From a virus, in IMG/VR virus record IMGVR_UViG_3300028591_000197: a stretch of DNA of 64,000 bases. The stretch is one strand, 5' to 3'. Of the stretch, positions 25,088 through 45,987 are shown one piece after another. Within the stretch, counting starts at the first letter, position 1. Each line of letters starts with the position of its first letter. Position numbers and translations under genes: made by a program. The notes under the pieces are model-generated. The model saw nothing but the letters and a program-made list of their open reading frames with translations, did no database searches and was not told where the DNA came from.

Positions 25088-25420
25088 ATGAACGAATTAG
25101 ATGCCATACAACAACAAATGGCCGCTCTAGGTATTGATGTGTCTCCTGAGACACAAGCACAGGCCCCTATGTATGATGAAGCTGCTTGACTTACTCCAGA
25201 AGAGGAAGCGATGTTCGCTCCAGGATGAGAGTTAGCAGTGGAAGAAGTTGTGGAAGAAGTTCCTACAGAGGGAGAGCTTGAAATGCCAGCTTACGATATC
25301 GAAGAGCTTAAAATCGACATTCAACCTATGTTGCAATGACTTCCTAAGGAAGAATTTGCTAACTTGATTATTTGGATGGCGGAACAGTTTAATTTATTAA
25401 ATTCAGAAAACAATGCCTAG
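25088..25420 (+). CDS. small acidic protein (about 110 aa)
   Basis: ATG at 25088 and TAG at 25418-25420. The next gene's ATG overlaps (aATGcctag). Confidence 0.45.
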
Positions 25421-26945
25421 ACAAAGAAAACCACAAAATGGTGGACAAAGAATTTGAACTGGAAGGGTCGCTAATACAACCACTGGTTCAACAACTACAC
25501 AAACTGTATATAGAATTCCTACAGGGAAAAAATATGGCGAATGTGATGTTTTGAACTATGAGGTAGTGTGAACCGCTCCAATTAGAGTAGCTATCGAATG
25601 AAGTAACGTTTATAGAGTTTCATTAGATGAGGCTGCTTTAAAAAACATTATAGAGAACTATGACAATTTAGACTTGTCTAACGTAACTCTACAGACAGTT
25701 AATTGAGATGTAACTTTTGAATGAAAAGTTACTTGAAACGAATTTGAATGAACAGCTATTACTGCAGAGACTATTTCTGCTACAAGTTGAGACATCACAA
25801 ATCTTTCTTCTGAAAATGTAGACGCTGACAATATTGAAGCAGATACATCTAGCCTATGAGCTGCTTCAGCTGATACATTAGAAGCTGGAGTTTTAGCAGT
25901 TGATTGAGCCTCTACATTTGATTGAGCTGTTACTATGAATAATACTTTAGATGTTGTAGGAGATGCTACAATGGCTAAAGCTACTATTACAGAATGAGAT
26001 ATTGCTGCACTAAGTTCAGATAATGCAGAAATTGAAACATTAGCAGTTACTAATGGCTTAACTGTTACAGGATGAGAGCATACAGACACAATTACTGTTG
26101 GTTGAAATGCTTCAGTTTGAGGAGGTTTATCAGTTACTTGACCTTCTTCTCTTTCTACATTAAACACATCTGGTCAAGCTGTTTTAAACTCATTAATAGT
26201 TAATAATAATGCAGTAGTTAGATGAGCTACTTCAACTGAAACATTAAATGTAAATGGAACTTCTTCTTTTGGAGGAAATGCTACATTTGTAGGAAATGTT
26301 TCTGTAGCTTGAAATCAAACAGTTAACGGAAATGGAATATTTAGTAATGATATCTCTGTTGCAGGAGATGCTTCTATAGCAGATGACTTATCTGTAACAG
26401 GATGAACTCATTTATCACACGCAGAAACAACAGGTAGTGTCGCTGTCGGATGAAGTTTAAGAGTTACTTGAGCTATTGATTGAGCAAATTGAGCGTCTAT
26501 TACTGGACAGCTTGAAGCTGACACAGCTAGAGTTTGAGAAATAGTTTCTGATGAAGTTAGAGTTAATGAATGATTATACCTAACTAGCTGAGCAGTAGCT
26601 CCTGATTTCATTCTACAAGATGAAAAAGGTGAAGCAGGTGGAGTTGCTCCATTAAACGCTTGTGGAAAAATTGACACTCAATATTTACCTAACCTTTGGA
26701 CAGCAGCCTGGATGAAGGTTTGATATTGAAGCTTTGATAATTCAAACACAGCTATAATTAATGATGAAGATATAACTAATGACGCTTACGTTGATGTATC
26801 TAACTATCAAGATATCATATGAGATACAGAAGAAATTATATCTGAATGAAAGTTAACTGTAATCAGTAACAAAACAGAAACTGGTTCTTTTAAATATATT
26901 GTAGTTAAGCCATTCAACTGACAAAGTGGATGTGAATGTGCATAA
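25413..26945 (+). CDS. tail fibre protein (about 510 aa), beta-helical repeat type
   Basis: Gly/Thr/Asn/Val-rich repeats (LSVTGG, GNATFVGNVSVAGNQTVNGNG). The C-terminus reads ...GKIDTQYLPN. Frequent TGA codons here mean Gly. The minus-strand track ORFs 25658..26167 and 26408..26677 are shadow ORFs. Confidence 0.65.
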
Positions 26946-26969
26946 TTTAAATCCTAATCTATACACGGT

Positions 26970-27896
26970 ATGCCAAGAGCAAGATTAACATTAAATGGAG
27001 ACTGAGTGTATACAGATAAGGATTGACGCATATATAAACTTACTCAAGAAGCTGTAGATAAAATAAACAGTATCCCTTGAGTAATTGATGACGTAAATTC
27101 TATGAGTACAACAGACGCATTGTCTGCTAATATGGGTAGAGAGCTTCAAGAACAGATTAATAATCTATCTGGAGCTCTCAGATATTTATCTGGATGGAAT
27201 TGTACAACTGGACTCCCAACTACAGACCCAATCCAAGACCCATATCAGTATTCTGCGTGATGTTTTTACATAGTCTCTAATGTGTGAGAAACGAACTATA
27301 AGCCACATTGAGCTTATTATAGACGCTGAGTTGCTAGTTCTGCTATAGAGACTGAAGATGTTCAAGTAAACGATTGGTATATGTATGACTGATTGGTATG
27401 GTCTCTTATTCATAATGCTTGATGAGGAGAAATTGTTGTAGATGATTATCTATCTACAACTTCTACTAATCCAGTACAGAACAGAGTTATTACAAATGCT
27501 ATTAATGGTAAACAAGATACATTAACAGCAGGAACTAATATTACAATTGAGAACAATGTAATTTCAGCAACTTGATGAGGATGATGACCTACATATACAG
27601 CCTGAGAAAATATTCAGATTTCTAATCAGAATGTAATATCAGCTACTGATACTACATATGAAGCTAGCGATTTTGATATAAAAGATTTAAGCGATTCGAC
27701 TCACTTAAAACAAACTTGGGGGAATTGAGCAGCTTTAGCTGCAACTGCATTACAACCTTGAGACAACATTACTGAATTAAACAATAATGCTGAGTTCACT
27801 GTTGATAAAGTTTTAACACAGGCAGAATATGACGCACTTTGACCATCTACGCAAACTGATGGAAAGAGATATTTAATATATTCTACTGTAGAATAA
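26970..27896 (+). CDS. tail fibre protein (about 308 aa)
   Basis: Its N-domain is shared with the N-terminus of the 32305 gene. It carries NITIENNVISAT and ISATDTTYEASDFDIKDLSDSTHLK repeats and ends with the C-terminal module ...GKRYLIYSTVE. Confidence 0.6.
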
Positions 27897-27921
27897 TTTT
27901 AATTTATACACATTTAATTAA

Positions 27922-29103
27922 ATGGCTAAAAAAGTTATTGACAAACTTATGTTAAATGGGCAAGCGTATCAAACTGCCTATGACAATACACTTACTATCC
28001 AGAAGAACTGAACGACTGTAGATAGCGTTAACCTTAATGCTACTGCTGATAAAACTATAAACATTACAGTCCCTACAAACTCTGATTATGTAGATTTAAC
28101 TTCTGCTCAAAGTGTAGGTGGAGTAAAAACTTTCACTAGCGAAATTGTAGTTCCTTCTAAAACTACAGACGCAACAAATACAGGAACTTCTGTTGCTACA
28201 GAAGCTCAGGTTTACAAAAAGCAAGATGCTTTAAGTTTACCTTCAACTCCTACAAGTGGTAACTTAGTTGCTTGGGGAGCTGACAATAAAACTCTTGTAG
28301 ATGGATGAGCTATCCCTACAGGATTCAACCCAGATAATGCTGGTTCTGTTGGACAAGTTTTGAAAAAGACTAACAATGGATACGAATGGTGAACAGATGA
28401 GGGACAGACTTATACAGCTGGTACTAACATCTCAATTGATGCTAACAATGTAATCTCTGCTGTAGATACAACTTATTCTGAAGTATCTAAGTCAGATATG
28501 GACACAGGGACTTCTACAACAGCTGGAGTTGTTTCAGCTAAATCTATCGCTGATTATGTTAGCGGAAGAATTGGAAGTGCTGTTGAATATAAATGACAAG
28601 TAGCTGATTACGCTTCATTGCCAGCAGACCCTGAGGTAGGAGATATGTACAACGTAGTCGCTGCGCATACAACTGCTCCTGAATTCGATGCTTGAACAAA
28701 TGTAGTATGGAATGGAACAGCTTGGGACCCTATGGCAGAGATGGTTGACTTATCTAATCTAGTAGACTTAACTTCTGCTCAAACAATTAGCTGAGCAAAG
28801 ACATTCTCTACAGAACCTATCTTACCTTCTAAAACTTCTGCTGCTACAAATACTTGAACTGCTCCTGCTTCAGAAGCACAGGTATACGCTGTAGCACAAT
28901 CTATTCCTACAGTTAATGATGCTACAATTAGCTTCACACAAGCTGGTAATAGCGTAGGAACATTAACTACAAACCAAGGTACAGCTGGAACATTAGCTTT
29001 TGCTGGAGTTATTCCTGCTACACAAGCTGAATGGGACGACTTACCAAGTTCTAAAATGACAGACAATAATACTTATTTAATATATTCTACTATTAATGAC
29101 TAA
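27922..29103 (+). CDS. tail fibre protein (about 393 aa)
   Basis: It contains a cassette of about 110 aa (SAKSIADYV...GDMYNVVAAH...TAWDPMAEMVDLSNLVDLTSAQTIS) that is near-identical to a segment of the 32305 gene. Its C-terminus is ...NNTYLIYSTIND. Confidence 0.6.
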
Positions 29104-29143
29104 TTTATTTCAAAAGTTTATAAAAAACTGAGTTGAAATTAAT

Positions 29144-32100
29144 ATGCCTGCAATACCTGAAGTTAATACAAAGACGTTCCAGCTATCTGGAGCGTCTGAC
29201 TTAACTACAGCGCAGGCTATTTTAGATTATTATAATGAAGATAACAATCCTGTTATCTATTATGCAGACAATATATATACAATTAGTTACGTTTGGACTG
29301 ACCATATAGATTTTATTGAGAATGAGGTAGAACACGAAACAACATCTTGAACTACATCTGTGTCTCAATGAAAGATAACTATTAATTTTGATAGTTGAGA
29401 AGTTACTACTATAGTAATAGGTAGTGAACCTATTATAAGTATTTGAGAGCAATTCCCTTGAATGACAATTCTTAGCTATTGACATTCTACTTGGCAAAAT
29501 TTTCTTGACGCTTATAATAAAAATGCGATAGTTTATACGAGAGCTTCTTCTAATTCTAATCCGGCTTCTTGAAGTCAGACAAGAATGGCATTTATGGCCT
29601 ATGTAAATAATGCTGAGAACCCTACAGAAGTTGAGTTCCAGTATTATAGAAGTAGAAGTGACCACAATACGCAAGCTAATCAATTAGACCAAGTGTTTGT
29701 TTATAAATTAACAAAAACAGCTTGACGAACAGTAACTACAAGAGACACGGCTGCCAAGCCTACTGCTTGAACTTGAGTAAGTCTTACATATGGTAGTGGT
29801 AATATGGTTATCGCTAATACATTGCCATTTAATCCAGGAAATACTTGAACAACAGGACAGGTTATTAAAAAGACAGCTAGTTGATATGAATGGGCTAATG
29901 AATCTTGATGAGGAAGTTCTTATACGGCAGGTGATTGAATAGATATAACTAATGATGTAATATCTGTTGATACTACAACAATTCAGCCAAAATTAACAGC
30001 TTGAACAAATATATCAATAGCTAATGATTGAACTATTAGTGCAACAGATACAACATATTCAGCTTGAGAATGAATAGAAATCTGAACTATTCAAGACTAC
30101 TCAGCTATGCAGTGACCAGCTCCTGAAGGATTCCACGTACCGCTTCAGAGTGAATGGCAAGCTGTATATGATATATGGACAGCTTTAGGTGGATGAAGTA
30201 GTGATTGACCTAATTTTTGAATAGCGTTGAAGTTGCCTATGGCTGGTTACCGTTTCAGCGCGTCTGCTGATGTTTACAATCAGGGTTCCAACGGAAAATA
30301 TTGGTCCTCTTCGCGTTACACCACTAATAGCGCATACTACCTGAACTTCAGTTCGGCTGCTCTTAGTCCTCAGAATACCAACTACCGTACAGGCGGTTAC
30401 TCTGTACGTTGTTTCAAGGATTTTCCAACTGTGCCTACATCTTCTTGGACAATGTTATATGGAACAAGTATAGAAGCAGGATGAATATTTTGGAATAGCA
30501 CAGATTGATTGATTTCATTAAGTTCTGACTGAGATATTTGGATAACTATCCAAGACAAGAACTTGTGAGCCACTACAGTATGGAATAGTTGAGATACGTT
30601 AAGTGAGGCTAATTGTGGTAAATACTATCAACGATGAAATAACTATGGATTTCCACGAACTTGAAGTGTAACTACTTCTTCAGCACAGGTAGACGCTTCA
30701 GCTTATTGACCTTGAAATTATTATTCTTCAAGCACATTCATAACAAGAAGTGAAAATCCATATAGATGGGATACTACAGATAACTGAAATCTCCGATGAT
30801 GAGAAACCTGAGTAGTAACTCTTGACAATGCTATCACAAACACAGGAGTGCTTAGTGTGAATTGACAAACTTGAGATGTAACTATTCAAGCTGGTTGAAC
30901 TTATACAGCTTGAGACTGAATAGATATAGATGCTAATAATGAAATTTCTGTAGATAGCACTATCGCTAAAGTTGACGATGTGAATACAAAGACATTCTAT
31001 CTATCAAGCACATCAGATTTAACGACTGCTCAGGCTGCTTATGATTGGCACGCTGATTGAAAAAACCCTATCGTAATATATAATAAAGAAGTTTATAATG
31101 TTACGAACTCTTATACTAACTATTTGGAATTGTATGCTATACCTACTTGACAGGAAACGGGAAGTACAGCATCAAGGGTAGATAAGCATAGACTGTCGTT
31201 TTATCATACTAATTGAGTAGTCTCTACTATTTCTTATTCTAATTCAGTTGTTGCTGAATTCTTAGGCTTAGGTTCAAATTATAGTGAGATTTATTATCCA
31301 AAATATGATTGAAGCCCTACTACAAAAAAATATGTAGATGACGCTATCATAAACAATAAGCCAATTGCTGGTAATAATATTACTATTGAAGAAGTATGTA
31401 CGACAGAACAAGATACTAAATGACCTTGTGAATCTGGATTTCATATTCCATTAGTTAGTGAATGGGGTTCAATAATAAACATCCGAACTTCTTTGTGATG
31501 AACTTCATCTGACTGAATATGATTCTCTACTGCGCTTAAATTACCTATTTGTGATTTGCGTTATTGATGAACTTGAAATATGAGTTCTGGTACACCTAAA
31601 ACTATATATTACTGGGCATCGGATTGTTGATGATACAGTAATAATCATAGAAATGTATTAATTCTTCAGAATAGTTCAGTATCAACTAATACAATAGCTT
31701 CAGCGAATTGATGTCCTGTGCGCCCGTTTAAAAATGCTGCAGTTACTCCAACGTCCTCTTGGACTAAATTATATTGAACAAGTATAGAGGCTGGTGGTAT
31801 ATTTTGGAGCAGTACAGACTGATTAATTTCATTAAGTAGCGATTGACAAACTTGGGTAACAATAGCAGACAAAAATATTTGAGCTACAACGACATATAAT
31901 TATTGAGATGCTTTTAGTGAATCAAATTGTTGAAAACTCTTTCAACGATGAAACAACTATGAATTTCCATATTGATGAAATATCACCACAAGTTGAGCTA
32001 CATATGATGACGTTCAGGCGTTTGGTCCTTGAAATTATTTTTATAGAGATAAGTTTATATTAGTATCTAACTGAAACTGGACAAATAATTATTATGCTAG

Positions 32101-32245
32101 AAATCTTTGGTGATGATATAGTAAATGAACTCGACAAGATTGTCGCGATGCTATTTCTTCTACTTGATGATTACCATCTTGATGAACAGTCTGACAAGTA
32201 TTAATGATGACTGCAGATTGACCAGCTTGGGTAACTTTATCATAA
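29144..32245 (+). CDS. tail fibre / adhesin (about 1033 aa) with two Fib_succ_major-like (TIGR02145-type) domains
   Basis: Two copies of the motif set DKNLGATTVWNSGD...CGKYYQRGNNYGF and GFHVPLQSEWQAVYD...LKLPMAGYRF...YWSSS...GGYSVRCFKD. Track ORF 30227.. lies in this frame. Confidence 0.6.
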
Positions 32246-32304
32246 AATATATTTTAGAAACAGAAACAAAATAAAAAACCTTTTTATATATAATCTTTTA
32301 ACTT

Positions 32305-35300
32305 ATGGCAAAAGCACGTCAAGTTTATACCGCTGACGACCTTTCAATCTTTAAAGAGGCGAAAGAGTTCAGCTTGGCTCCAGAAATCACAAGCAAATTG
32401 GATTGAATAGAGCCAGGTGCTCAGGTTAACAAAATTGAGATTGTAAAAGTTAACTGAACACCTTTACCAATTGATGAGTATAAAGCTGTGAATGTGGAAC
32501 TTCCTCTAGTAGAAGACGCATTGAACTCTACTTCAACGGAGAATGCTTTATCGGCGAATCAATGAAGGGTTTTGTATGATTATATACTTAACCTACAGTC
32601 AAGAGGTAGATACCTTTCTAACTGGAATTGTGTCACTTGATTACCTATGACTAACCCTTCTGTAAGTCCTTATGAATATAGGACAGGAGATTACTTTATT
32701 GTAAGTAACGTTTCTGATGGTGGTACTAACTATAGACCTTCTGGTCTTAGATATATCACCTGACAAGCTTCTACTACTCCAGAAGAGGAAGAGGTTAGCG
32801 TAGATGATATTTATCTATTCGATTGAGATAGATGGTTATTGCTAGATAACTCTGGTAAAAGCATAGCTGTTGACCAAGAATTATCTACAACATCTAGAAA
32901 TCCAGTAGAGAATAAAGTTATTACAAACGCTATTAATCTAAAACAAGACACAATCGTAGCGTGAAATAACATTCAAATCTGACAAGATGGAAAGACAATC
33001 TCTGCTACAGATACAACTTATACAGCAGGTGCTTGAATTAGCATTGATGCTAATAATGTTATCTCTAACACACAGACAAACGCTGTATGGTGAAACATTA
33101 CAGGAGTATTATCAAATCAAACAGATTTGCAATCAGCTCTTAACTCAAAGCAAAATAAGCTAACAGCTTGAACAAACATTTCAATTGATTCTAATAATGT
33201 TATATCTGCTACAGATACAACTTATACAGCTTGAGACTTTGATATTAAAGACTTAGCTGATACAACTCATTTAAGAGATACTTGGAATGGAAAACAAGAT
33301 ACAATCGTAGCTTGAAACAATATTCAAATCGCTGCTGACTGAGTTACAATCTCAGCTACTGATACAACATACACAGCGTGAACTAATGTTCAGATTTCTA
33401 ATTCTAATGTAATATCAGCTACAGATACAACATATTCAGCTTGAACAAATGTATCAATTGATTCTAATAATGTTATTTCAGCAGTTGATACAAAATATCA
33501 AGCTTCTGATTTCGATATTAAAGATTTATCAGACAGCACAAATCTTAAAGATAAGTGGAATAACAAGCAAGATACAATCATAGCTTGAAACAATATTACA
33601 ATCAATGCTGATGGTAAGACTATCAACGCTATTGATACTACATATCAAGCAAGTGACTTCGATATTAAAGATTTATCAGATAGTACAAATCTTAGAGATG
33701 AATGGTCTGGTAAACAAGATGCTCTTATCGCAGGAACTAATATTCAAATAGCTGCCGATGGAAAAACAATTTCTGCTACAGATACTACTTATAATGAAGT
33801 AACTACTGCAGATATGAACGCTGGAATAGATACTACTCCAGGTGTTGTAAGTGCTAAATGAATCGCAGATTATGTAAAGAATATGGTTGCTAGCGGTGTT
33901 GTTTATAAAGGACAAGTTGCTGACTATGATAGCCTTCCTGCTAGTCCTTCAGTAGGTGATATGTATAATGTTGTTGCCGCTCATTCTACTGCTCCAACAT
34001 TTGATGCAGGTACTAATGTAGTATGGAGCTGAACAGCCTGGGACCCAATGGCTGAAATGGTAGATTTATCTAACTTGGTAGATTTAACTTCAGCACAGAC
34101 TATCAGTGGTGTAAAAACATTCTCAGCAGAACCTGTTTTGTCAACAGCTAAAACAACTCCAGCTACAAATGACTGAACTAAATTTGCTACTGAGGCACAG
34201 GTTGCTTCTAAGCAAGATACATTAACTGCTGGTGATAATATTACAATTAACAATAATGTTATCTCTGCTTTAGGAGATATGAGATATGCTGACTTCTATC
34301 AAGTAGATGCTGAATGAAGTACAATATCTCTTTCATTAAATACTGCAGTTGAACCAGAAGCAAACTTCACAGTTAATGCTCCTGCTACAATTAAGGATGG
34401 ACAAACGTATATTCTTAGAGTTACTAACTGAGCGACTGCTTACACAATGACTCTTGGACAAAATATAACTAATCCATATGAAGTTAATACTTCATTAACT
34501 GCTGATGGTGTAGACCAGTTTGTATTCTTTGCGGTAGATGGTAACCTTGAATTACAACCTGAAGGAGGAAGCGGAAACTTAAAGGTATTTGAGTTATGAG
34601 ACCAATGGGAAATTAGTGCTTCTGATTTACAAGAAGCTTTAGACTTTCAATTAGGTTGATGAACTGCTATATTACATCACAGAGAAGAATACTATTTCTT
34701 TGCGTCAAATGACGATTGGTGATGTAATTGGGAAGCTACTACAGTTGAATGATGATTAGACTATGTATATTTGCCAACAATAAGATGACAATATGAGACT
34801 TATCAATCTAACGTAATAGAATATGTTAATAGAAATAGTAGCCAAGTATGAAATTATATCTCTAAAGATAATAGTGATTCTAATACCCCATTTATACCTA
34901 ACAAAGATTCTCAACCTACATCTAAGAAATATGTAGACGATAGAGACGACTTATATTTTCAGTGATTAACAGCTTGAACTAATGTGCAAATCGCTAAGAG
35001 TTATACTATAGTGAACGACCAGCAATGACCTTGTTCTACAGGATTCCACATTCCTAACGACAACGAAACGTCTAATTTAGTTTGACTCCTTCAAAATCTT
35101 TGATTAAGCGACACTGATGTAGAGACACACTTACATATGCCTCATACAGGATATATTGACAAAGATTGAGTATATCAAAACGACAATAATTGATATTTCT
35201 GGACTACTTATGCAGATTGTTGGACTGCTCAGCGTTTTGCTACAGGAAATAACTATTGACCATCCTCTTCAGGTTGGGGAGATTTGTCTTATTGACTTCC

Positions 35301-37128
35301 TATTCGTCCATTTAAAGACTCATATGCTTCTCCATCAGGAGCTGCTTGGACGTTAGTTACTTCAAGTGATGCTTTTGAAATGTGGTATAACGCTACAGAT
35401 GGATTAATTTCTATAACAGATGGTGGTAGTTTACATATAACATTAGCAGACAAAAACTTATGAGCCACTACAGTTTATAACTATGGTGACACATTAAGTG
35501 CTGCTAACTGTGGAAACTTATATCAATGGTGAAACAACTATGGATTCACTTGGTGAGTAGACCCATCTAGCACAAGCTCAACACCTGTAGATGCTAGTGG
35601 ATATGGTCCAGGAAATTACTACTCTTCTAGTACATATATTATTGGTAGCGGTAGATGGATGGATGACTGTGCTCAAAACCTTTGGTGATGACAAAGTCAA
35701 GCAATAAATAAGATTCCTTCTGCAGTAATTTCTGCTACAGATACTACTTATACAGCTGGTACAGGTATTGACATTACTAATGGAGTAATCTCTAATACAC
35801 AAACATCTGCTGCTTGGTGAAACATTACTGGAACATTATCTAATCAGACAGATTTACAAAACGCATTAGATGCTAAACAAGATGAATTAATTGCTTGAAC
35901 AAATATTACTATAGCTTCTGATTGAAGAACAATCTCTGCTACAGATACTACATATTCTCAAGCTACTGCTTCAACATTATGACTTGTTAAGTTATGAAGT
36001 AATACTGTACAAGCTGATACAGTTACAACTCCTTCAAGTACTGTTTGAAGAACTTATCCAATCCAGGTTAATGCTGATGGACAAGCTGTTGTAAATGTAC
36101 CTTGGTATGCTTCTAGTTGAGGTGGAGGTTGACACGAATATACTTCTTGAACAGGTATCTCTGTAGATAACACAAATGATATTATATCTAACACTTGAGT
36201 TATTACAGTTAACAGCCAATCAGGTAATGTAACAGTAGATGAATTCAGCCCTTCTAATTCTTGAAGTACTGGACAGGTTTTGAGAAAGACTTCTAGTGGA
36301 TATCGTTGGGATGATGAATGAGGTGCTGTAACATCTGTAAATAATCAAACTTGAGATGTTTATATAGATGAATTTGACCCTAACAACTCTGGTTCTGTAG
36401 GATATGTTCTTACAAAAGTTAACTCTTGAAGTTGATATGAATGGGCTGCTAATGATTCATTCTGACCAGATAATCTATGAACAAGATGACAAGTTCTTAC
36501 AAAAAATGCTAACAACTATTCTTGGGAAGATATAGACTTACCTAGTGGAGATAACAATGTAAAATTCTGGACGTTGAGTTCTGGAAATGGTATGTATAGC
36601 ACTACAGTGACTCAGGAAATCTATGATTGGTTAAATGCAGACCCTAATAACTGAGCTATTATTAATGATACATTCAAGAGAGAAGTGTTTGTATTCTATA
36701 GATTTAATAATACTAACGATGCTGTATTCCTTTGAGTAAAGCGTAACTCAGAATTGCATCCAGTAACTCCAAGTTCTACAAGAGCATTTACAAGTGCTTG
36801 GCAATGGGTATTAACTATCAATCATAGTACTTACTACATTACTGTAGACCAGAACGATGACCAAGATACAGTTACAAATTATATCTCTGCATCTTGAGCT
36901 CCTTACTATGACCCAGTTGATAACCCATCAGGGACATACGAAGCTTTCTTGCCTACTAAAGATTGGCAACCCGCTACAAAATTGTATGTTGACCAAGCTG
37001 TAGCTTGATGAGGATGAGCAAATGACTTAGTTCATAGTTCTTCAATAACAAATATTTGGACTTGAACAGAAAGTCAATATAATAGCCTTCCTAGCCATTC
37101 TGCTAATACACTCTACTTTACATATTAG
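32305..37128 (+). CDS. giant modular tail fibre (about 1607 aa)
   Basis: I walked the frame from ATG 32305 to TAG 37126-37128. It combines the N-domain shared with the 26970 gene, many TAGTNISIDSNNVISATDTTY repeats, the cassette shared with the 27922 gene, and a Fib_succ_major-like domain (GFHIPNDNE...IRPFKD; ADKNLGATTVYNYGD...YQWGNNYGF). Confidence 0.55.
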
Positions 37129-37191
37129 TAAAGATTATATTGTCTAGGAGGGGCAACCCTCTTAGACATTTTAATATATATAACGATATAA

Positions 37192-37950
37192 ATGGCAATT
37201 TATATTTGGACAGATAATCACGTAGGTGCTTGAATATACCATAACCCTTCTCAGGGATTAATTTCTTTAAGTAGAGACTGAGTGAATTGGACTACTATAG
37301 CTGACAAAAATTTATGAGCTACGCAGGTGTATAATGAATGAGATACATTTAGTGCAGCTAATGTTTGAAATTGGTATCAACGATGAAATAATTATGCGTT
37401 TCCATATTCTATTTGAAGTACGTGACCTAGTTCATCAAGTTCTACACAAGTAGACGCGTCTACATATGGTCCAGGAAATTATTATTCTTCTTCTACACGA
37501 ATAGACCCATATGTAGTAACTCAAAGTTCTTACCGAGACTCTAGTATAAATACTGACTTATGGTGAGGTGATACTAATACGCTTTCTGCTTTACAATGAC
37601 CTTGTCTAAGTGGGCGACATATTCCAACACATAGTGAAGCTGTAGGTATATGTAATAACTTTACACAGATTTCAAATTCTGGTCTATGAACCTATTTAAA
37701 AATGTGAAATCGGTGAGTCTTAAATAATGCCTGAACTGTTTCAGCTGAGGGATTATGGTGAAACTTACATACTGCTACATTAGAAGAAACCGAACCAGGG
37801 TTTTATACTCTTCGACAAATTACTACTTCAGATGGAGGTTTTTATACGTGAGGAGCTTGAGGAACTGATGGATGAGCCCCAATTCGTCCGTTTAAAAATG
37901 TTTGAGTAGCACCAGATAACTCACGAACCGTTTTATATCAACCTTCATAA
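37192..37950 (+). CDS. stand-alone Fib_succ_major-like domain protein (about 252 aa)
   Basis: Carries ADKNLGATQVYNEGD...GNWYQRGNNYAF, GPCLSGRHIPTHSE and ...GGAPIRPFKN. Confidence 0.5.
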
Positions 37951-37953
37951 AAA

Positions 37954-39606
37954 ATGACAGCAACACAACAAACAATATCTGGAATTCATTTAGGAGACCA
38001 AACTGTCAGGAAGGTTTTTAAATGAGGCGACCAGGTTCGGCCAACAAGTACTCCACCAGCTCCATCTGGTGAGTATATTGAATATAAGATGAGAGCTGAT
38101 AATAGTGGTAATCTATATGTGCCTACTGGTTGATATAGTTCAAGTTGACAATGTAATTGTCCTTATGATTGGAAAGTAAGCATAGACTGATGAACAGAGT
38201 TGCCAGTTTCGTGAACGTGAGGTAATAATACTTATGAAACATTTTGATGATATTCTGCTTGAACATCCCATACAATAAAAATTACTCCAAACATAGAAGA
38301 TTACTGATGGGCAAAAGCTTATTGACGATATATAAATAAACGTTCATTTTTAAGAGAAGTTATATACGATGGTAGCTATATGTGATACGCTGTAAGCGCG
38401 ACTGATACTGGTAACTACTTTAGATATTATCAATATTATGGATGTACAAATCTAACATTAGCTCCTAATGAAGTATTGCCTGATACAGTTACTACAATAT
38501 GAACTTCTTTTAGAGAAAACCAATATGGAAGTTGTACGTCTTTATCTTTAGTTCCTAATGAAGTTATCCCTAATTCTGTAACTTCTATATGAGGTAATTT
38601 TAGATGCGCTCAATATGATGGTTGTAGTTCGTTAACTACTGCTGCGAATGAGGTATTACCAAATTCTGTAACAACGATAGATTCTAATTTTAGAACTAGA
38701 CAATATAGTAATTGTTCAAATTTAACTACTGCTGCGAATGAGGTATTGCCAAATTCTGTAACATCTATATGATATAACTTTAGAACTTATCAATATTCTA
38801 GGTGTACATCATTAACTACAGCTCCAGCTGAAGTTTATTCTAGTTCAGAAACAGATATATGAGATAGCTTTAGATATTATCAATATTATGGATGCACTAG
38901 CTTAACTACAGCAGCCACTGAGGCGCTTCCAGCTTCTATAACTACGATATGAGTATGATTTAGAGAAGCACAGTATGAATGATGTACGTCCTTATTAACT
39001 ACGGCAACAGAAGTATTTACTAACTCAGTTACAAGAATTGAGAGCTCATTTAGAAGGCATCAATATTATTGATGTACGTCATTAACTACAGCATCGCCTG
39101 AGGCAATGTCTAATCAAGTGACACGGGTTTGAAGTTATTTTAGGTCTTATCAATACGATTGATGTAGCTCTTTAGTTACGGCACCACAAGCAAATAATGG
39201 TTCTATACCTTGAATTGGTATGGTATATAACTTTAGATATTATCAATTTGCAAATTGTACTTCATTGGAGATTTGAGCTGAAGAGGATTTGCCAACTTGA
39301 GATTCTTGAGTTTATGGAAGTAGCGAATTAAGTTGTCAATATAGATGATGTCCTTCGCTAAGATATATTATTCTTCACGCTTGGCCAATCTCTCATTCTG
39401 ATATTTACTTTAGAATTAATCAATTTAAAGATTCTTGAAATAACTTAACAATAAAAATAGTTTGAAATTCTGTGGACTGAGCCTATAATAGTGCCTGATT
39501 AAATCCTGATAATGTTAACGAGATTCAAGTTCCTAGTGCGCTTCTTTCCGCATATCAGAGTGCTTCTAACTGGAGTGCTGTAAGCTCTAAATTCGTATGA
39601 TATTAA
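37954..39606 (+). CDS. BspA-like leucine-rich-repeat protein (about 550 aa)
   Basis: About 12 tandem 23-aa units of the form FRxYQYxGCTSLTTAxNEVLPNSVTSIGxN. Its N-terminus shares the KVFKGGDQVRPT module with the fibre paralogs. Confidence 0.55.
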
Positions 39607-39633
39607 TTTTAAATAAATAACATAAAGATAATT

Positions 39634-40317
39634 ATGTCTTTAATAGCACATTACCCTCTAATAGCTAATTGAAACGATACAGAGGGAAATTATAATTTAA
39701 CCAACTCTAACGTGGTACCTTTTACTCAAGTACAATGAGTAACTTGTGCGAAGTTTAGTGGTATTGACTACCAATACCTTCACGTAAGCCAATTCCCATT
39801 TTCAGGAGATATAGAACTCTATGTTAACTTTTGGATGTGTAGCACAACGAATAATTATTCTAACTATCCATCTGTCATATGATTAGGTACTACACAACAA
39901 TGAAATGAAAATTTCTGTGTACGAATTAGTCCTGATTATGGTAGTATATTATGTACTTGATGATGGGATTGTGACGCTCATTCAAACTATGTAGTTCCTA
40001 CAAATAAATGGATTAATGTAGCTGTAGCATATAAAGACTGAGCTATAAAAATGTATGTAAATGGAGAGAATAAAATAGATGCAACTATCCCTTCATATAA
40101 TATTACTTGATGAGAATTCAGCGTTTGAGGTCAACCAACTTGAGGTTCAATATTTACGTGATGAGTAAGTGATTTGTATGTCTATGATGCAATTCCAGCT
40201 AATCTAGAAACAGAAATAGTCGACCATTATAACGCTACAAAATGAACATATATAAAACCTAAATTTAATCTTCATTCTATATTTGGGACCTTTCATAAAA
40301 AAACTTCCACTATTTAA
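39634..40317 (+). CDS. LamG / concanavalin-A-like lectin domain protein (about 227 aa)
   Basis: Carries WINVAVAYKDGAIKMYVNGENKIDAT...GGEFSVGGQPTGG, the typical Laminin_G_3 pattern. Confidence 0.45.
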
Positions 40318-40337
40318 TTAATAATGAACAATTAAAT

Positions 40338-41711
40338 ATGACACAAATATTTAAATGAGATGCGTCTATAAGAAATGTTCGTTTATGAGGGCAGACCATT
40401 TGAAAGGTGTTTAAATGAGATGGACAAATCCGACCAACATACATTCCTCCAATAGATTATCACGTAATATGAGATTTTACACAATGAAGTGCTCCTAGTT
40501 GATGGGACTGTTCTGGTGTATCATTTACTGCCGATTGAATAACTGTCGGTAGTTGAGAGCCTTATTGAATGGTAGTCAATTCTTCAAGCTCTGCACAAAA
40601 TCCTTTCCCATCTCTTAGTAATGCTAAATTAGTTGTAATGGATGTTTCATATGAGTGTTTATGAAATTCTTGAGATAGGATACAGGCTCAGTTTATAAAC
40701 TGATGACAAACTGTTGTAGTATGATTATTAGATAGTAATTGAGTTTGAGCCAATATGGATGGCGACCCTTTTATTCAAAACGAAGATTGAGCAATTACCG
40801 TATACACAGAAGATGTATTTAAAGTAACGTTATCTTTAAAACAGCAGACTTATGATTATGAACAATATCTACAAGGCGTTTATTCACACGTATGACAATA
40901 CTGAACGGGAGATACGATAACAACAGCTGATGTGTGAGCGATTAGGGGAATAAACTGATTAGCTATTTCGTTCAACTGAAGTGTTTGCATAAAATCTATA
41001 GATGTATATGTTTATATTGACGATGAACCTGTTGTAGTAACTACTCCTTGAATATATCATAATGCCTCTTTAGGATTAATCTCTTTATCAGATGCTAATT
41101 GAGAGAACCGAGTAACAATAGCTGATAAGAACCTATGAGCTTCTAAAGTCTATGACCCAGACGACCCAAATCCTGATTTATGATATTGCTATCAGTGGTG
41201 AAACAATTGTCCAGATTATTCAAGGACTTGATGGACTGACGCACTTAGAGATGCTTCTAGTTATTGACCAAATCAACCTTTCTATAGTACAACTTGGACT
41301 AATCCAAATTGGTGAAATTGGGACAACCCTGCTAATAATAACCTTTGGTGATGAGAAACTTGAACAAAGGAAGCGATGAAATGACCTTGTCCTATTTGAT
41401 TTAATATATGAGATAATAGCGTAAATCAATGAGCTCCAAATGGTTCTCAATGGACAAGAATAGGATATAACTTTAATAGTTTATATGCCAATAGTTCAAA
41501 TTATTTACTTGCAGATGAAAATGATAATCGATGGTCTGCGACTGCAAATATTGATACTCACGCATACGTTATCTGTTTTGGCGCTAATTGACGTTTAGAT
41601 ACAAATACTTGAATGTATAAAACATATACAAGTTATCATATTCGTCCTATAAAAAATACTTCAGTAATTCCAGATTCATCTTGGACTCCTTTATATCAAC
41701 TTAGTAATTAA
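40338..41711 (+). CDS. tail fibre / adhesin (about 457 aa) with the conserved N-module and a Fib_succ-like C-domain
   Basis: N-terminus MTQIFKGDASIRNVRLGGQTIGKVFKGDGQIRPT. Also ADKNLGASKVYD...GYCYQWGNN, GPCPIGFNIG and ...IRPIKN. Confidence 0.5.
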
Positions 41712-41712
41712 A

Positions 41713-43137
41713 ATGTGAGAAATAATTATTGATTCAAATTATATCTCTAAAGTAAAACTAGGAGATACAAACGTAGGGAAAGTCTATAAAGGTGATAATC
41801 AAATCTGGCCAAGGATACAAGTAGCAAATTATCATATGATGCGGGACTTCACAAATTGAAGCGCTCCTAGTTGATGGAGTTGTACATCTACTTCATTTAC
41901 TTCTGAATGAGTAAAAGCAACTGGTAGCAATGTATGAGTAATGGAATTTAGTCTTCCTTCTGCCGCATTAAATTCACTTAGGAATGCTCAATATGTAGAA
42001 TTTCTTGTACATTATTTTTGAGAGACAACCAGTTCTCAAATAAGAGTGCAATTATTGAATCCTAATGAAGTATATCCTGTATTATGATTTAATTTTGGTA
42101 GTGATTGATGAGATGTGCGTTATAGAGTTGCTAGCCAAAGTTTCGGCTCTTATGACTCTTGGGTATATGGACATAATGTTTCTAGAATAGCTCTTGACTT
42201 AATCCATCCTTACCAGTGATATAGTGATGGAAGAAAGCTTTTATATCAATGTATCTATAATGTATGATGACGATGAGAGCGTGCTACATATGAAGATGCA
42301 GTAAAGCTTAGATGAGCCACAACACTTGAAGCAAGAATAAAATGAGATTGTTATATAAAGTCTATAGAATTAATCTCCATAAGTACAAATCCTGCTATAG
42401 CTCCTTGAATATATTGGAATGATAGTATGTTATGATGAATGCTCTCTATGTCAGATAATTGATATCAGTGGATTTCTATAGCAGATAAGAATTTATGAGC
42501 TAGTAGTGTATATCGTAGTTGAACTCCTAGAGATTCTACCGCTTGATATTTTTATCAGTGGTGAAATAACTATTGACATTCTCATTGATGAGTCGATAAT
42601 CCTACTGATAAATTAATATGATATGCTGCAGACATACCAAGCCACTGACCAGGAAATTATTTTAGATACCCAGCATTTAGTTGAGTAGGACAATGTACTT
42701 GGTCTAAAGAATATAATTATAATCTTTGGTGAGATACTACGGATACAAATGCTTGAAGGCAATGACCTTGTGATAGTTGATTCCATATTCCATCTGTATA
42801 TGAAGCAATGAAATTTAGATTTTATTGGCGAAGTTTAATATATCGACGGCAATGACACTCTGGCTTATCATTGGACGATTTGTTTGCCCCTACGTGATAT
42901 TATGAAGGTGGCGATTGAAGTTATAGAAGCAGTTCAACATTTTGGCGAACGTCTACGCCATTTAAGCAAATCGATTACCCTTATAGCTGAGATGCTCGGG
43001 GTTTTTCGCTTGGTAATGATTCTGTAACTCGAGAAAGGCTATGTAACAACAGCGGTGTACATATTCGTCCATTCGCAAATGCTTCATACTATCCAAATGC
43101 TTCCTATTGGACTCCTTTATATCAAGCAAGTTATTAA
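41713..43137 (+). CDS. tail fibre / adhesin paralog (about 474 aa)
   Basis: N-terminus MGEIIIDSNYISKVKLGDTNVGKVYKGDNQIWP. Also ADKNLGASSVYRSG...GYFYQWGNNYG, GPCDSGFHIPSVYEA and ...IRPFAN. Confidence 0.5.
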
Positions 43138-43139
43138 AA

Positions 43140-44009
43140 ATGTGACAAATACGTAAATGAGATAATCTTATAAGTGGGGTAAAGCTAGGAGGACAAACTA
43201 TCAGAAAAGCATTTAAGTGAGACGCTCAGATTTGGCCTGTATATGTTCCACCTGTTGTATGAAATATAATTAGTTGTGATTTTACAAATGAAACTGACCA
43301 AAGCCTTATAAGCCAATGATTTCAAAGCGTTTGAGAATCTTATTGATTAACTGTCTCTTGAGACTGAAGTTGACTTAATTGGGTAACTTATGAAACAGAT
43401 ACAGCAAGTGGTATAGAATTCCCATACTCTGCAAGTCTAGTTTGAAAGCAAATATCTTGGACAGCATATGTACATAAACAAGATTTTGACTTATGGTGAG
43501 GACCTAAGTTGACACTACATATGAACCCCACACAAACTGGTCGTAATAAATATAGCAACATATCTTATATACCTTTAGCTTGGGTTGTATGAGAATATGA
43601 TTCAGGCTGGCCTACATATTCTAATGTAGACGCTTGATTTATATCTATATATGGATGAAATAGATACGATTGAAATAAATCTTGAAGTGGACTATATCGG
43701 TGAAGTTTATATGCCCCATCTTGATATGAAAATCTTTGATTCGGAGCTGACGTTTGAACGTATAAAATGGAATGATTTATTGATTTTGATACTTGGGCCT
43801 ATCAAAACACGCGAACTAATCCAAATTGAGACACGTATACTTTTGAAAGATACTTCACTCCATCTGACACATCACAAGAAGCTAAAGCTATAATTAATAA
43901 TAGTTTAGCGTCGTCTAATAAACATTTTTCTATAGAACTTTCTAGATGACGGTGATATCACTGAAGAGATGTTGATAGACGACTGTCTTTATATGTAGAT
44001 GTATATTAA
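43140..44009 (+). CDS. tail fibre paralog (about 289 aa)
   Basis: N-terminus MGQIRKGDNLISGVKLGGQTIRKAFKGDAQIWP. It is very TGA(Gly)-rich. Track ORF 43651.. lies in another frame and is rejected. Confidence 0.4.
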
Positions 44010-44234
44010 TATTTACTCCATTACACAATAATAATTTTTACCTTTTACCAACACCAAAACCAATGACAAATGATAATTCAAAAAGAACTCCTTGTCAAGT
44101 TTACACAAGAGTTATGTGATATATAAGACCTGTAGAATGATACAATCTTTGAAAGAAAAGTGAGTTCTATTGAAGAAAATACTTTGACGAAAATAAAATA
44201 GATAATTCAGATTTTATTAGAAAATATTCAACAC

Positions 44235-44456
44235 AATGTGAACAATCAAAATAATTACGGGGGAATTTTGTTCCCGTTGCCATATGATATCTCCTATGCT
44301 AAAGAAATATGCGGAGGAGAATGGATTATCTTTCATAGAGAAAGATATTAAAAATGCTAATCCAGATGAAATTGAAGGGGCTTCTATGTTACCTGTAATT
44401 TATTTCTGAGATGAAAGAATTGAATACGATGATGCTCTTGCTAAGGTTATGAAATA
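44235..44456 (+). CDS. glutaredoxin / NrdH-like small redox protein (about 73 aa)
   Basis: Active-site-like CSRC within MGTIKIITGEFCSRCHMISPMLKKYAEENGLSFIEKDI. Confidence 0.45.
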
Positions 44457-44558
44457 GCAGGTAATACCGTAGTCAAAAATATTTTAAGACACACAAATAA
44501 TACGATGTGGATAAATTACTTACTTCAAATTATTTTATCTAAAATAAACATTTTAAGA

Positions 44559-45503
44559 ATGGTAGATACTGATAAAACTCCAGAATTAACGGAGGAGAAA
44601 TTAAGAGCATTTGAATGAGCTCTTACATTACCTGAAGATATGGCAGAAGCTACAGACTTTGAAGCAGAGGAAGCTATCAATATAGACTACTCTGTAAAGC
44701 TACCAGATTTCTTTTCTCTATGAGAGTGGATTTATAAGACTTCAAATCAAGGTAGTCTATGAAGCTGTACTTCTATGTGAACAACTCACTGAACTCAAAT
44801 CCTTATGGTAAAGAAAGGGTGAGTAAAGCCTACTAATTCAAATATTGTCACTCCAGATTGGAAAGACTTATGGAGTAAAATGGGACATAGCACAACTAAA
44901 TATGACGGTTGAGACTATGTAGAAACTGCAGTAAAAACTGCACTAAAACAATGAATAAAAACAATAGAAAAATGAGACGAAGTTAAATTTGATTGATATG
45001 CTACATCTGCTTGGGATATGACAGATAAATGTATTGACACTATGAAGAGATACATTTATCAATGATGTCCTATTGTACGATGTGTAAGATGAGATAAAAA
45101 TACTTGGACACAGATGACTAAATGAGAAGTTAAAACTGTGCCTACAACTCCTACGGGATGACATTGTATAGCGCTTGTCGGTTGGGACGCTAACTGATTC
45201 TGGTTTATTAATAGCTGGAGCGCTAACGATGGTAAAAAACTAAAATCAAGATTCCATATTTCATATAAAGTAATGAAGGATTTTGGTTTGAAATTCAACT
45301 ATAGATATTGGGTTCTCTATGTTAAAGAAGATGCAAAGAAAGACCCAGAGTATCTAAAAAGAAAGAATATAGCTTTAATAGTATTACAGGTTCTAAAGAA
45401 ACAATATAACTGAGAATCAGCTGATGTACAGAAAGCTATAGTATCTCTGAGTCAAGCATTAAGAAAAGCTTACCCAGAAATAAATGAAGATTTACCTCTA
45501 TAA
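44559..45503 (+). CDS. papain-like (C1-type) cysteine peptidase; candidate endolysin (about 314 aa)
   Basis: NQGSLGSCTS, GGHCIALVGWDANG and FWFINSWSANDG resemble the C1 catalytic Cys, His and NSWG motifs. The gene sits immediately upstream of the holin. Confidence 0.45.
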
Positions 45504-45537
45504 TAATTTATTTATGTGAGAAGTTTCAACAGGGGGA

Positions 45538-45987
45538 ATGGTTGCCTCAATAGCTTGAGGTGTCTGCTTAGCTTGAATATTAGAATATTTTCAAGTTAGT
45601 TGTGAGACAGTAATAATCCTCTTTGTTATGCTTGCGCTAGATTATATATTTTGAATACTAGATGCCTACTTAAGAGATAGGAATAGTGTTACAAGTGACC
45701 AAATGCGAAGATGATTCTGGAGAAAGATGACTAGATGGATGTTGCCTTTGATAGTTATAGCTATACTTAGATGAGTTGGAGCGGGGGATTTACAAATGGC
45801 TTCAACTGTAATCTATTCTATTCTAATTATAACTGAAGGGTATTCTATTATAGGACATTTCTTCTCTATTAATACAGGTAAAGAATTACCAGAGATAGAT
45901 GCGTTTGAAATGTTAATCAAATTTATTACAAATCTATTAAAAGGTAAATTGCCTGAAGTTAAAGATAAAGATTTAGATGAAGAATAA
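45538..45987 (+). CDS. holin, Phage_holin_4_1 (LL-H / TcdE-like) family (about 149 aa)
   Basis: Carries LALDYIFGILDAYL followed by hydrophobic helices and a charged C-terminus. Track ORF 45796..45987 is its 3' part. Confidence 0.55.

Follow-up and report, generated by a model that had tools for sequence, protein, structure and literature searches.

An 11-gene cluster of fibre and adhesin proteins with shuffled binding modules in a phage that probably infects Absconditabacteria (SR1)

Results

Gene layout and genetic code

Positions 25413-44009 of the window (the whole 64,000-nucleotide stretch of viral DNA analysed) contain exactly 11 consecutive plus-strand genes when TGA is read as glycine, in line with the approximately 11 consecutive fibre or adhesin genes described in the first-pass annotation. 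Under table 11, open reading frames are nearly absent from the region, whereas it becomes ~100% coding once TGA is recoded. The genes are tightly spaced, with intergenic gaps of -8 to 63 nt, and this run of tail-fibre/adhesin genes makes up ~27% of the ~67-69-kb phage genome. The cluster is flanked by tail genes and lysis genes, and a C39-like peptidase and a holin form a lysis cassette immediately downstream. A PHROG profile search also identified a portal match. The portal match, the fibre domains and the downstream lysis cassette support the assignment of the sequence to a phage. Two tail-region proteins of 796 aa and 217 aa had no detectable relatives.

In-frame TGA aligned to glycine in 44% of cases (n=2270 positions). 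CGA aligned to tryptophan in 48% (n=363), with F, S, D and Y as the next matches and R and K absent, and tryptophan was the top match of CGG at 19%, a weak signal from 62 positions. For CGT and TGG, the aligned residue was R in 62% and W in 64%, respectively. Moreover, protein P0140 carries TGG at the position where P0139 carries CGG. The phage therefore uses UGA for glycine and CGA/CGG for tryptophan, the combination that defines the Absconditabacteria code (Shulgina and Eddy 2021, PMC8629427), and the CGA/CGG reassignment points specifically to Absconditabacteria. In a search of 185,579 species, the extended FISUMP module described below was restricted to SR1 and 'Peribacteria' genomes. The code and the confinement of this module bear out the earlier suggestion of a CPR host and narrow it to Absconditabacteria/SR1.

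Fibre proteins in the first part of the cluster

The first gene, g25413 (25413-26945, 510 aa), encodes a beta-helix-like repeat fibre or spike protein that matches phrog_7964 (E 1e-8) and phrog_1469, 'baseplate wedge subunit' (E 2e-5), with weak LpxA/bactofilin-type hexapeptide-like matches. Of the 11 genes it is the best conserved, with orthologues 40-47% identical in three related phages (L003, L004 and L006), and it is a candidate tail-proximal fibre. The next two genes, g26970 (26970-27896, 308 aa) and g27922 (27922-29103, 393 aa), encode fibre proteins that end in the same C-terminal tip motif, TQAEYDAL...YLIYS. A long N-domain (~190-280 aa, with Phage_fiber_rpt) is found in g26970 and g32305, and such a domain heads two fibres in every related phage examined. 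Phage_fiber_rpt (PF22337) passes the Pfam cutoff in both proteins (31.5 bits vs 27 in g26970), and Phage_tail_C (PF24243) passes it in g32305 (36.1 vs 23.7 bits) with a sub-threshold score of 18.5 in g26970.

The 'mega-fibre' g32305 (32305-37128, 1607 aa) contains many shaft repeats of the type 'TAGTNISI..VISATDTTY' and a C-terminal Phage_tail_C tip. All-versus-all BLASTP aligned g26970 aa 35-279 with g32305 aa 66-374 (44.5% identity, E 6e-65), confirming the N-domain reported as common to these two genes, and g27922 aa 12-337 with g32305 aa 328-649 (45.5% identity, E 2e-74), of which g27922 is a second-segment homologue. The third match, to g32305 aa 888-1238, came from g29096 (29096-32245; 1049 aa, or 1033 aa from the second ATG). 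Because these matches fall on successive segments, the 1607-aa protein is colinear with the three preceding genes, as expected from its earlier description as a concatenation of several modules. Within g29096, a large unit is duplicated internally, each unit closes with a pair of FISUMP-like halves, and the gene contains the DNA repeat families D2 and D9.

FISUMP-like modules

HMMs built from the copies located six N-halves and six C-halves in five genes and none further in the window. The module count of the first-pass annotation, at least eight, is therefore reduced to six units, and its distribution over five genes stands. In g29096, C1 (30077-30469) precedes N1 (30437-30820) and C2 (31394-31783) precedes N2 (31751-32137); likewise, in g32305 the C-half (35002-35370) is followed by the N-half (35341-35712). 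The order is N-C in the stand-alone unit g37192 (37192-37950, 252 aa; halves at 37201-37587 and 37573-37947), in g40338 (41016-41372 and 41355-41705) and in g41713 (42388-42750 and 42736-43131). The motif order given earlier thus applies to the latter three genes and is permuted in g29096 and g32305, and the two tandem copies noted in the 1033-aa protein are real units in which the C-half comes first.

The designation as a TIGR02145-like module is upheld by a direct profile match for one copy only (g29096 aa 341-442, 45.1 vs 41.65 bits, model positions 61-176); the other five copies were unmatched in the NCBIfam profile search, and their C-halves are assigned to FISUMP by paralogy. Pfam PF09603 scores of 18-20 bits were below the cutoff of 33.9. 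The six C-halves align over the motifs GPC..GFHIP and IRPFKN/SVRCFKD, and pairwise BLASTP gave E values down to 1e-11, or 1e-37 over whole units, so that all six are homologous to the copy above the cutoff. Family-HMM domain E values of 1e-35 to 6e-50 are circular because the HMM was trained on these same six copies. For comparison, host-clade proteins with the extended module score 37.7-48.5 bits against TIGR02145. The module is read here as a putative C-type-lectin-like domain plus a beta-rich N-half.

The phage copies share the motifs GW/FH.P...EW, LP.AGYR, YWSS and G.SVRC.K with FISUMP (TIGR02145/PF09603) of Fibrobacter and Bacteroidota. In contrast to those bacterial surface lipoproteins, five of the six phage copies fall below the thresholds, a ~60-aa insertion follows YQWGNNYGF, the half order is permuted in two genes, and the copies lie in phage fibres and lack a lipoprotein signal. 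The phage proteins show no signal peptide, pilin N-terminus or hydrophobic signal and start with fibre or anchor modules.

An N-terminal peptide common to four proteins

A ~35-aa N-terminal peptide, M..I.KGD..I..VKLGGQTI.KVFKGD.QIWP, heads g37954 (peptide at 37954-38064), g40338 (40338-40454), g41713 (41713-41823) and g43140 (43140-43256), with pairwise BLASTP E values of 1e-6 to 2e-15 among the four proteins. Its end, given as QIRP in the first-pass annotation, reads QIWP or QVWP because CGA/CGG encode tryptophan. The peptide does head four proteins as claimed, yet these are not all 'otherwise different', since g40338 (40338-41711, 457 aa) and g41713 (41713-43137, 474 aa) are full-length homologues (34% identity), each with the anchor, a middle domain, an N-half and a C-half. 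The last gene, g43140 (43140-44009, 289 aa), is homologous to g40338 over approximately its first 80 aa only (E 2e-15 vs g40338 aa 1-88, BLASTP), and its body has no Pfam, NCBIfam or PHROG match. In predicted structures, the anchor forms short beta-strands of low pLDDT (38-65) adjoining well-folded domains, as would be expected of a peptide that takes up its fold on a partner.

In g37954 (37954-39606, 550 aa), the anchor is followed by a beta-sandwich domain and ~ten 30-aa BspA-type LRR repeats (38413-39312). The earlier label of a BspA-like LRR protein fails at the profile level, as LRR_5 (PF13306) gave no Pfam match even at E up to 5, and holds at the level of fold and homology. The predicted structure is an LRR solenoid nearest to solved LRR_5 structures, the repeat region matches the repeats of the related protein P0135 (E 3e-14, BLASTP), which itself scores 25.5 against the LRR_5 cutoff of 27.7 bits, and eight homologues (P0187-P0191 and P0193-P0195; E 1e-20 to 2e-4) are annotated as PF13306. 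Compared with BspA-type LRR_5 surface proteins (4fs7, TpLRR 6mlx and PcpA 4cp6), the repeat of g37954 is 30 aa rather than ~23 aa, is missed by the Pfam model and is joined to a phage anchor peptide. The neighbouring g39634 (39634-40317, 227 aa) has a LamG/concanavalin-like lectin fold and no anchor peptide. Its residues 64-185 match PF13385 (Laminin_G_3; E 6e-12, 46.3 vs cutoff 27.6 bits), consistent with its earlier identification as a LamG protein, and it also matches phrog_8510, 'virion structural protein' (E 8e-7).

Variation among related phages

In the strain variant L007, the LRR gene is 100% identical over its first ~150 nt, drops to 52-74% in the body and returns to 99% at the gene end; a body of ~60% identity (58% in amino acids) thus lies behind a 100%-conserved anchor. 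The g40338 counterpart in this variant (P0121) is 92% identical, with the differences concentrated in the middle domain. Another lineage has a distinct but related N-peptide, EPSKIFVGDTPISKVFLGD.QVWPS, which heads both the FISUMP-type P0089 and the LRR-type P0145, indicating that the peptide tracks the phage lineage and not the body. The modules recur in related phages in different combinations, among them LRR+FISUMP fusions and C-N-N-C. Paralogues are old, at 33-57% amino acid and 60-83% nucleotide identity, and three independent assemblies show no differences over 18-21 kb (100% identity). Accordingly, the modular part of the proposed 'rapid modular diversification' is retained, with reshuffled modules and one cassette swap, whereas its speed finds no support in the old paralogues and identical assemblies.

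Discussion

Gene structure, module homologies, folds, constancy of the anchor across a body swap and the genetic code are the observed properties of this locus. We consider it probable that the cluster encodes a branched multi-receptor-binding apparatus of a virulent-looking phage of ~67-69 kb infecting Absconditabacteria (SR1), in which new combinations arise through recombination at module borders and not through targeted mutagenesis. Two classes of attachment module are distinguished, class I being the long N-domain of g26970 and g32305 and class II the ~35-aa peptide of g37954, g40338, g41713 and g43140. The class I proteins and, probably, g25413 would attach to the tail and form shafts, and the class II peptide would dock secondary binding proteins at a common site on the primary fibres or the tail. 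The binding bodies, comprising the clade-specific extended FISUMP module, a BspA-type LRR solenoid, LamG/jelly-roll-like domains and one domain of no known family, may together allow the virion to bind several kinds of surface ligand, probably glycans. We infer virion incorporation, docking and ligand binding from the phage context, gene packing, module homologies, anchor behaviour, shuffling and the KP32 precedent discussed below; one structural model behind this reading was built from sequence mistranslated with code 4. Arguing against it, g39634 and g37192 carry neither class of anchor, and Pfam, NCBIfam and PHROG sequence profiles revealed no T4gp10-like branching domain or docking partner in the 11 proteins. 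A broad or shifting receptor repertoire, as proposed earlier, would be a reasonable expectation.

Several other explanations were weighed against this apparatus. The four proteins with a common N-peptide might be rivals for identical docking sites that are limited in number, so that virions carry different random subsets and progeny are phenotypically mixed. Four proteins with one anchor, the long N-domain on two fibres in every related phage examined and the lack of per-protein docking domains in Pfam and PHROG searches all fit such competition, but g29096 and g32305, with their long repeat-rich shafts, might provide numerous sites. We regard competition as rather unlikely, and it would refine the apparatus model. 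It is more doubtful still that part of the lectin-like, LRR or LamG set consists of morons or accessory adhesins acquired from the host and serving, for instance, to alter or mask the host surface, to exclude superinfection or to help the episymbiont attach. SR1/Peribacteria chromosomes do encode the extended FISUMP module behind leaders of the signal-peptide or type IV pilin kind, and no anchor is recognisable in g37192 or g39634; however, the phage proteins lack such leaders, their genes lie inside a late structural operon with tail genes before and lysis genes after, and several of the proteins are fusions with fibre repeats and tail-tip domains. In addition, a rough tree places the host modules and the phage modules in separate clades, which argues against recent capture.

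The colinearity of g26970, g27922 and g29096 with successive segments of g32305 could also mean that the three genes are a split, decaying copy of a g32305-like gene, or that g32305 is a recent fusion, leaving the 'arsenal' partly redundant or non-functional. This seems improbable to us. All three are intact open reading frames with their own starts, the conserved tip motif closes both g26970 and g27922, the N-domain is found in at least two distinct fibre genes of related phages, and the genes are identical across the three assemblies. Their identity to g32305 is only ~25-45%, suggesting that the split is old and maintained. Least credible is programmed variation of the lectin-like tips by a diversity-generating retroelement (DGR) or an invertase. 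Precedents are Bordetella phage BPP-1 and the Bacteroides 'Bacuni' phages, the latter with DUF1566/Fib_succ_major motifs in their DGR targets (PMC5758913, PMC8143477). No reverse transcriptase was present among the genes scanned (a near-complete genome, with 3-5 kb unsampled), the DNA repeat search found no TR/VR pair and no repeat pair above 83% identity, mismatches between repeat copies were spread over all four bases without adenine bias, inverted repeats were at chance level, and all genes lie on one strand. The DGR explanation is thus nearly refuted within the scanned genome. Compared with C-type-lectin-fold systems (BPP-1 Mtd, TvpA, TaqVP, Legionella LdtA/Lcl-C and Bacuni DUF1566/Fib_succ_major; PMC5758913, PMC8143477), the phage described here has no DGR, its diversity lies in multiple paralogues and recombination instead of mutagenic retrohoming, and a ~125-aa N-half stands before or after the lectin-like half.

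The branched apparatus that we favour has counterparts in phages with many receptor-binding proteins (RBPs). Klebsiella phage PhiK64-1 is reported to have 11 RBP genes (Pan et al. 2017). Like it and the TSP1-4 complexes of Ackermannviridae (PMC11414711), the present phage has many consecutive RBP genes, a large genome share devoted to them, horizontal exchange, and a conserved N-terminal assembly module with a variable distal module. Those systems consist of enzymatic tailspikes against capsules or O-antigens with defined branching domains, whereas here the binding folds look non-enzymatic and the episymbiotic host, which is uncultured, differs in cell envelope and genetic code. The closest parallel to the short peptide is Klebsiella phage KP32, in which the first 29 aa of RBP2 dock on the RBP1 branching domain (PMC13352976). 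As in the KP32, K11 and KP34 systems (RBP1 anchor plus branching domain), a short constant N-peptide (29 aa in KP32 gp38, ~35 here) precedes unrelated bodies, is kept as the body is exchanged (100% nucleotide identity across the LRR swap) and accompanies a longer anchor on the primary fibre. The parallel is one of analogy, as four proteins carry the peptide here and one there, neither a similarity in peptide sequence nor a branching domain of the T4gp10 type was detected, lectin-like, LRR and LamG bodies take the place of depolymerase beta-helices, and docking is only proposed here. The mosaic adhesive trimer (MAT) fibres of Bdellovibrio bacteriovorus (PMC10769870) are proteins of a cellular predator, not of a phage, and have no sequence relationship to the cluster.

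In SR1/Peribacteria MAGs, the extended FISUMP module occurs in a chromosomal context, with UvrA and a Na/Pi symporter as neighbours, and in secreted and pilin-like proteins it is preceded by a signal peptide or by the N-terminus of a type IV pilin. Such SR1/Gracilibacteria-type surface modules are plausibly adhesins for the bacterial hosts of these episymbionts. A speculative and improbable extension is that part of the phage arsenal recognises the surface of the basibiont rather than the SR1 cell, i.e., 'find the basibiont, then infect the epibiont'. If true, the phage would home to, or stay at, the SR1 attachment site by using adhesin modules shared with its host lineage. The cluster represents a known phage strategy in an almost unstudied host group, with a lectin-like module shared with surface proteins of the host clade.

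Locus and genome context

The locus at 25413-44009 is a modular multi-RBP cluster of a known kind, and the receptor-binding arsenal described by the first-pass annotation is a real feature that needs some corrections. The window covers most of a phage genome, with a portal gene at 17096-19141 (phrog_156); upstream genes for a terminase-like ATPase and scaffold-like and capsid-like proteins are read by position and sequence features only. The cluster is followed directly by genes for a C39-like peptidase (44505-45503) and a holin. Two other assemblies (L001 and L002) are 100% identical to the window sequence over 18–21 kb, which rules out an assembly artefact. Contigs of 67–69 kb place about 27% of the genome in the cluster, and the layout is common to related phages of about 58–74 kb (L003-L006). 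With the capsid protein as query, no relatives were found in an IMG/VR scan or by tblastn against GenBank phages, and PHROGs gave essentially no matches for ten fibre proteins. Sequence searches of PDB chains returned nothing significant for the LRR protein g37954 (genes are named by their start position), a FISUMP unit, a 796-aa tail protein, the N-terminal part of the mega-fibre g32305, or the repeat fibre g25413. The sizes of two tail-region proteins, 217 aa and 796 aa, resemble those of T7 gp11 and gp12.

Several other genes were recorded. Between the terminase-like gene and the portal lie ORFs of 2767 aa (8353-16656) and 992 aa (5351-8329), the latter with no family match beyond a faint PHROG hit; both may encode internal virion or ejection proteins. 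The minus-strand early region carries a C-5 cytosine DNA methylase gene (61057-62043; PF00145, E 2e-49), and in a related 73.7-kb phage, the lysis genes are directly followed by an IS605 OrfB/TnpB (Cas12f-like) gene (L004, 14465-15086). A 292-aa gene (47557-48435) contains three tandem repeats of ~34–36 aa, TPITEGIGWMSTPEGPRYGGGIKTV, at 47997-48306 (families D12 and D20). The 404-aa protein encoded at 50164-51378 combines a Cys-rich N-terminus with the fibre-shaft motif DAGTGIDVDNDGVIS (family D10 copy at 51039-51083), and its gene, which lies outside the cluster, may be fibre-like, which would make twelve in all.

Genetic code

Under translation table 11, the cluster contains only short ORFs. 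TGA accounts for 4.8% of codons, and long-ORF coverage, otherwise 10%, reaches about 100% once it is recoded; no such rise follows recoding of TAG or TAA. In paralogue and orthologue alignments, TGA is aligned mainly to Gly (44%, n=2270). Trp encoded by TGG in some module copies is CGA or CGG in others (e.g., in QWGNN, LWGG, SWT.L, and QIWP), and the conserved Arg of IRPFKN is encoded by CGT or CGC. In a systematic count over the alignments, W accounted for 48% of the positions matched to CGA, F, S, D, and Y ranked behind it, and R and K were absent; W was also the top match of CGG, weakly (19%, n=62). The same count gave R for CGT (62%), R and K for AGA (36% and 13%), and W for TGG (64%). The combination of UGA as Gly and CGA/CGG as Trp has been put forward as the Absconditabacteria code (Shulgina and Eddy 2021, PMC8629427). 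By these alignments, the phage is read as using CGA for Trp besides TGA for Gly, and probably CGG for Trp as well; examples of reassigned codons are CGA at 30632-30634 (codon 513 of g29096) and 37924-37926 (codon 245 of g37192) and CGG at 38038-38040 (codon 29 of g37954). All our translations take TGA as Gly and CGA/CGG as Trp, and with this code exactly 11 plus-strand genes fill the cluster, separated by gaps of −8 to 63 nt.

The literature searched contained no earlier report of phage use of CGA/CGG as Trp; Liu et al. 2023 (PMC10746230) go no further than stating code 25 for most predicted Absconditabacteria phages. A tRNA search of the 64 kb detected no tRNA gene of any kind, hence no suppressor or recoding tRNA, so the phage appears to depend wholly on host tRNAs for the recoded TGA, CGA, and CGG. 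In public databases, the proteins of these phages are translated under code 4, so that every TGA becomes Trp, and CGA/CGG becomes Arg. The result is an error in about 10% of residues, a practical annotation problem that hides domain matches.

Codon use varies among the genes. The capsid-like gene (20398-21945) uses TGA for 2 of its 45 Gly codons (4%), compared with 50–77% in most other genes, and lacks CGA and CGG, two codons also missing from the genes for portal and scaffold. Strong expression, its timing, or a separate origin are possible reasons. Among the fibre genes, the share of Trp codons written as CGA/CGG is very uneven (7/12 in g37192, 8/19 in g41713, and 0/31 in g32305), which hints at different module histories.

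Mosaic architecture of the fibre genes

All-versus-all BLASTP bears out the proposed mosaic of shared modules. The 1607-aa mega-fibre g32305 is colinear with the three genes preceding it, as g26970 (aa 35–279) matches its aa 66–374 (44.5% identity, E 6e-65), g27922 (aa 12–337) its aa 328–649 (45.5%, E 2e-74), and g29096 its aa 888–1238. Further downstream, the stand-alone FISUMP-like unit g37192 is matched over its full length by the C-terminal half of g40338 and by that of g41713, and these two genes are full-length paralogues of each other (34% identity, E 3e-59). At least eight modules over five genes had been claimed; the five genes hold, but HMMs built from the copies give exactly six N-halves (GLISLS.DG..W.TIADKNLGA...YQWGNNYGF...GPGNYYSSS...NLWGG) and exactly six C-halves (GPC..GFHIP..EW...LKLP.AGYR...YWSS...IRPFKN), with no further copies of either in any frame of the window. 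The C-half precedes the N-half in g29096 (twice) and g32305, and the order is reversed in g37192, g40338, and g41713.

Relatives' architectures include an LRR+FISUMP fusion (P0135) and C-N-N-C (P0122), among others; in a set of 195 retrieved proteins, NC was found in 115, CN in 20, CNNC and CNCNNC in 3 each, CNCN, NCN, NNC, and NCNC once each, and neither module in 50. The modules form a large family with hardly any annotation: in an exhaustive profile search, 739 cluster representatives matched at E ≤ 1e-30 and 5,662 did so at E ≤ 1e-3, and single proteins had as many as eight module stretches.

Domain assignments

The expected TIGR02145 profile match was borne out in part: aa 341–442 of g29096 pass the cutoff (45.1 vs 41.65 bits, over the C-terminal two-thirds of the model), but no other copy does. 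Pfam Fib_succ_major stayed below threshold, with a weak co-hit to Lcl_C (DUF1566). The stand-alone unit was predicted with a pLDDT of 78.9 and a pTM of 0.81, and Foldseek with this model found no significant match; this structure and that of the LRR protein were predicted from code-4 database copies, in which W stands at Gly codons and CGA/CGG gives R. We read the FISUMP-like unit as a probable C-type-lectin-like domain, of the FISUMP/DUF1566 kind, with an extra beta-rich N-half. The LamG call for g39634 is confirmed (E 6e-12). The LRR call for g37954 is right despite failing the profile check with Pfam LRR_5 (PF13306), which does not detect the protein, because about ten regular 30-aa repeats are present, distant homologues carry PF13306, and the repeats exceed a pLDDT of 90 in the predicted structure.

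Candidate N-terminal anchors and body exchange

As had been proposed, one short N-terminal module is shared by four proteins: the anchor M..I.KGD..I..VKLGGQTI.KVFKGD.QIWP heads g40338, g41713, g43140, and, in a slightly shorter form, g37954. The AF2 model gives it short strands of low confidence (pLDDT 38–65) beside well-folded domains. A strain variant (L007) is about 95% identical to window 39499-46387, and its LRR gene is 100% identical to g37954 over the first ~150 nt, 52–74% identical over the body (58% at the amino-acid level), and 99% identical again at the gene end. Here the body has been swapped while the anchor stayed fixed. Another lineage has a peptide that is related to this anchor without being the same, and it stands at the head of a FISUMP-type protein (P0089) as well as an LRR-type protein (P0145), so the peptide tracks the phage lineage and not the body. 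Several fibre proteins of L003-L005 begin with weak versions of the anchor. The other anchor class is longer: represented by the first ~190 aa of g26970 and g32305, it includes Phage_fiber_rpt and heads two different fibres in every phage examined.

Another short N-terminal motif, M(A/S)IY(I/M)W, stands at the start of g37192 (37192-37212) and recurs in related phages on stand-alone FISUMP-like proteins and an LRR+FISUMP fusion (P0004, P0022, and P0135). It could be another, shorter docking tag.

Mode of diversification

FISUMP/DUF1566 domains of phage tail proteins are known DGR targets (PMC5758913, PMC8143477). In contrast to such phages, this one is without DGR machinery: no TR/VR-like pair was found, mismatches between repeat copies show no adenine bias, and no reverse transcriptase occurs among the genes scanned, so a DGR was rejected. 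An invertible segment was likewise rejected, since inverted repeats are at chance level only. Together, these results argue for diversification by duplication and recombination. The first-pass interpretation is sound in outline and overstated in calling the diversification rapid, as paralogous DNA is just 60–83% identical and a single strain-level swap is the only support for speed.

Host link

Scanning 185,579 species for the module, each represented by a single genome, returned 11 loci, all in a 'Candidate division SR1' genome or 'Candidatus Peribacteria' MAGs. Their neighbours are chromosomal (UvrA, Na/Pi symporter, and VirD4-like ATPase), with no match to the phage. The encoded proteins start with a signal peptide, contain the full N-to-C unit, and score 37.7–48.5 bits with TIGR02145. 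In Peribacteria MAG CAZMFL010000049.1 (L010, 879-4040) and SR1 bacterium MS502-49 (L009, 4125-5669), the extended FISUMP module is encoded on signal-peptide proteins with Cys-rich spacers and on one protein with two units and a type IV pilin/pseudopilin-like N-terminus (E 6e-9). The episymbionts themselves may use these proteins as adhesins. Recent capture of the module from the host is unsupported, as host and phage modules form separate clades in rough NJ trees, and the sharing would accordingly be old.

Comparison with known systems and significance

In arrangement, the locus resembles what is known from Klebsiella and Ackermannviridae phages with branched multi-RBP systems. The first 29 aa of KP32 RBP2 dock on RBP1's branching domain and are needed for incorporation (PMC13352976). 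Unlike the KP32 type, four proteins here carry one common peptide, and the bodies have binding folds in place of depolymerases; searches for a T4gp10-like branching domain found none. The literature searched contained no description of fibre genes of code-25 phages. What raises interest is the host-shared adhesin module together with the predicted phage use of the full Absconditabacteria code. To our knowledge, Absconditabacteria phages are known from metagenomes alone. For one family of such phages, the locus itemises the candidate components of host recognition: anchors of two classes, and bodies of lectin-like, LRR, and LamG type. Surface proteins of the host clade itself carry members of the family to which the main binding module belongs. 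The conserved candidate docking peptide and the visible recombination border suggest that the 'anchor plus swappable body' rule of Klebsiella and E. coli phages may extend to a very distant phage-host system.
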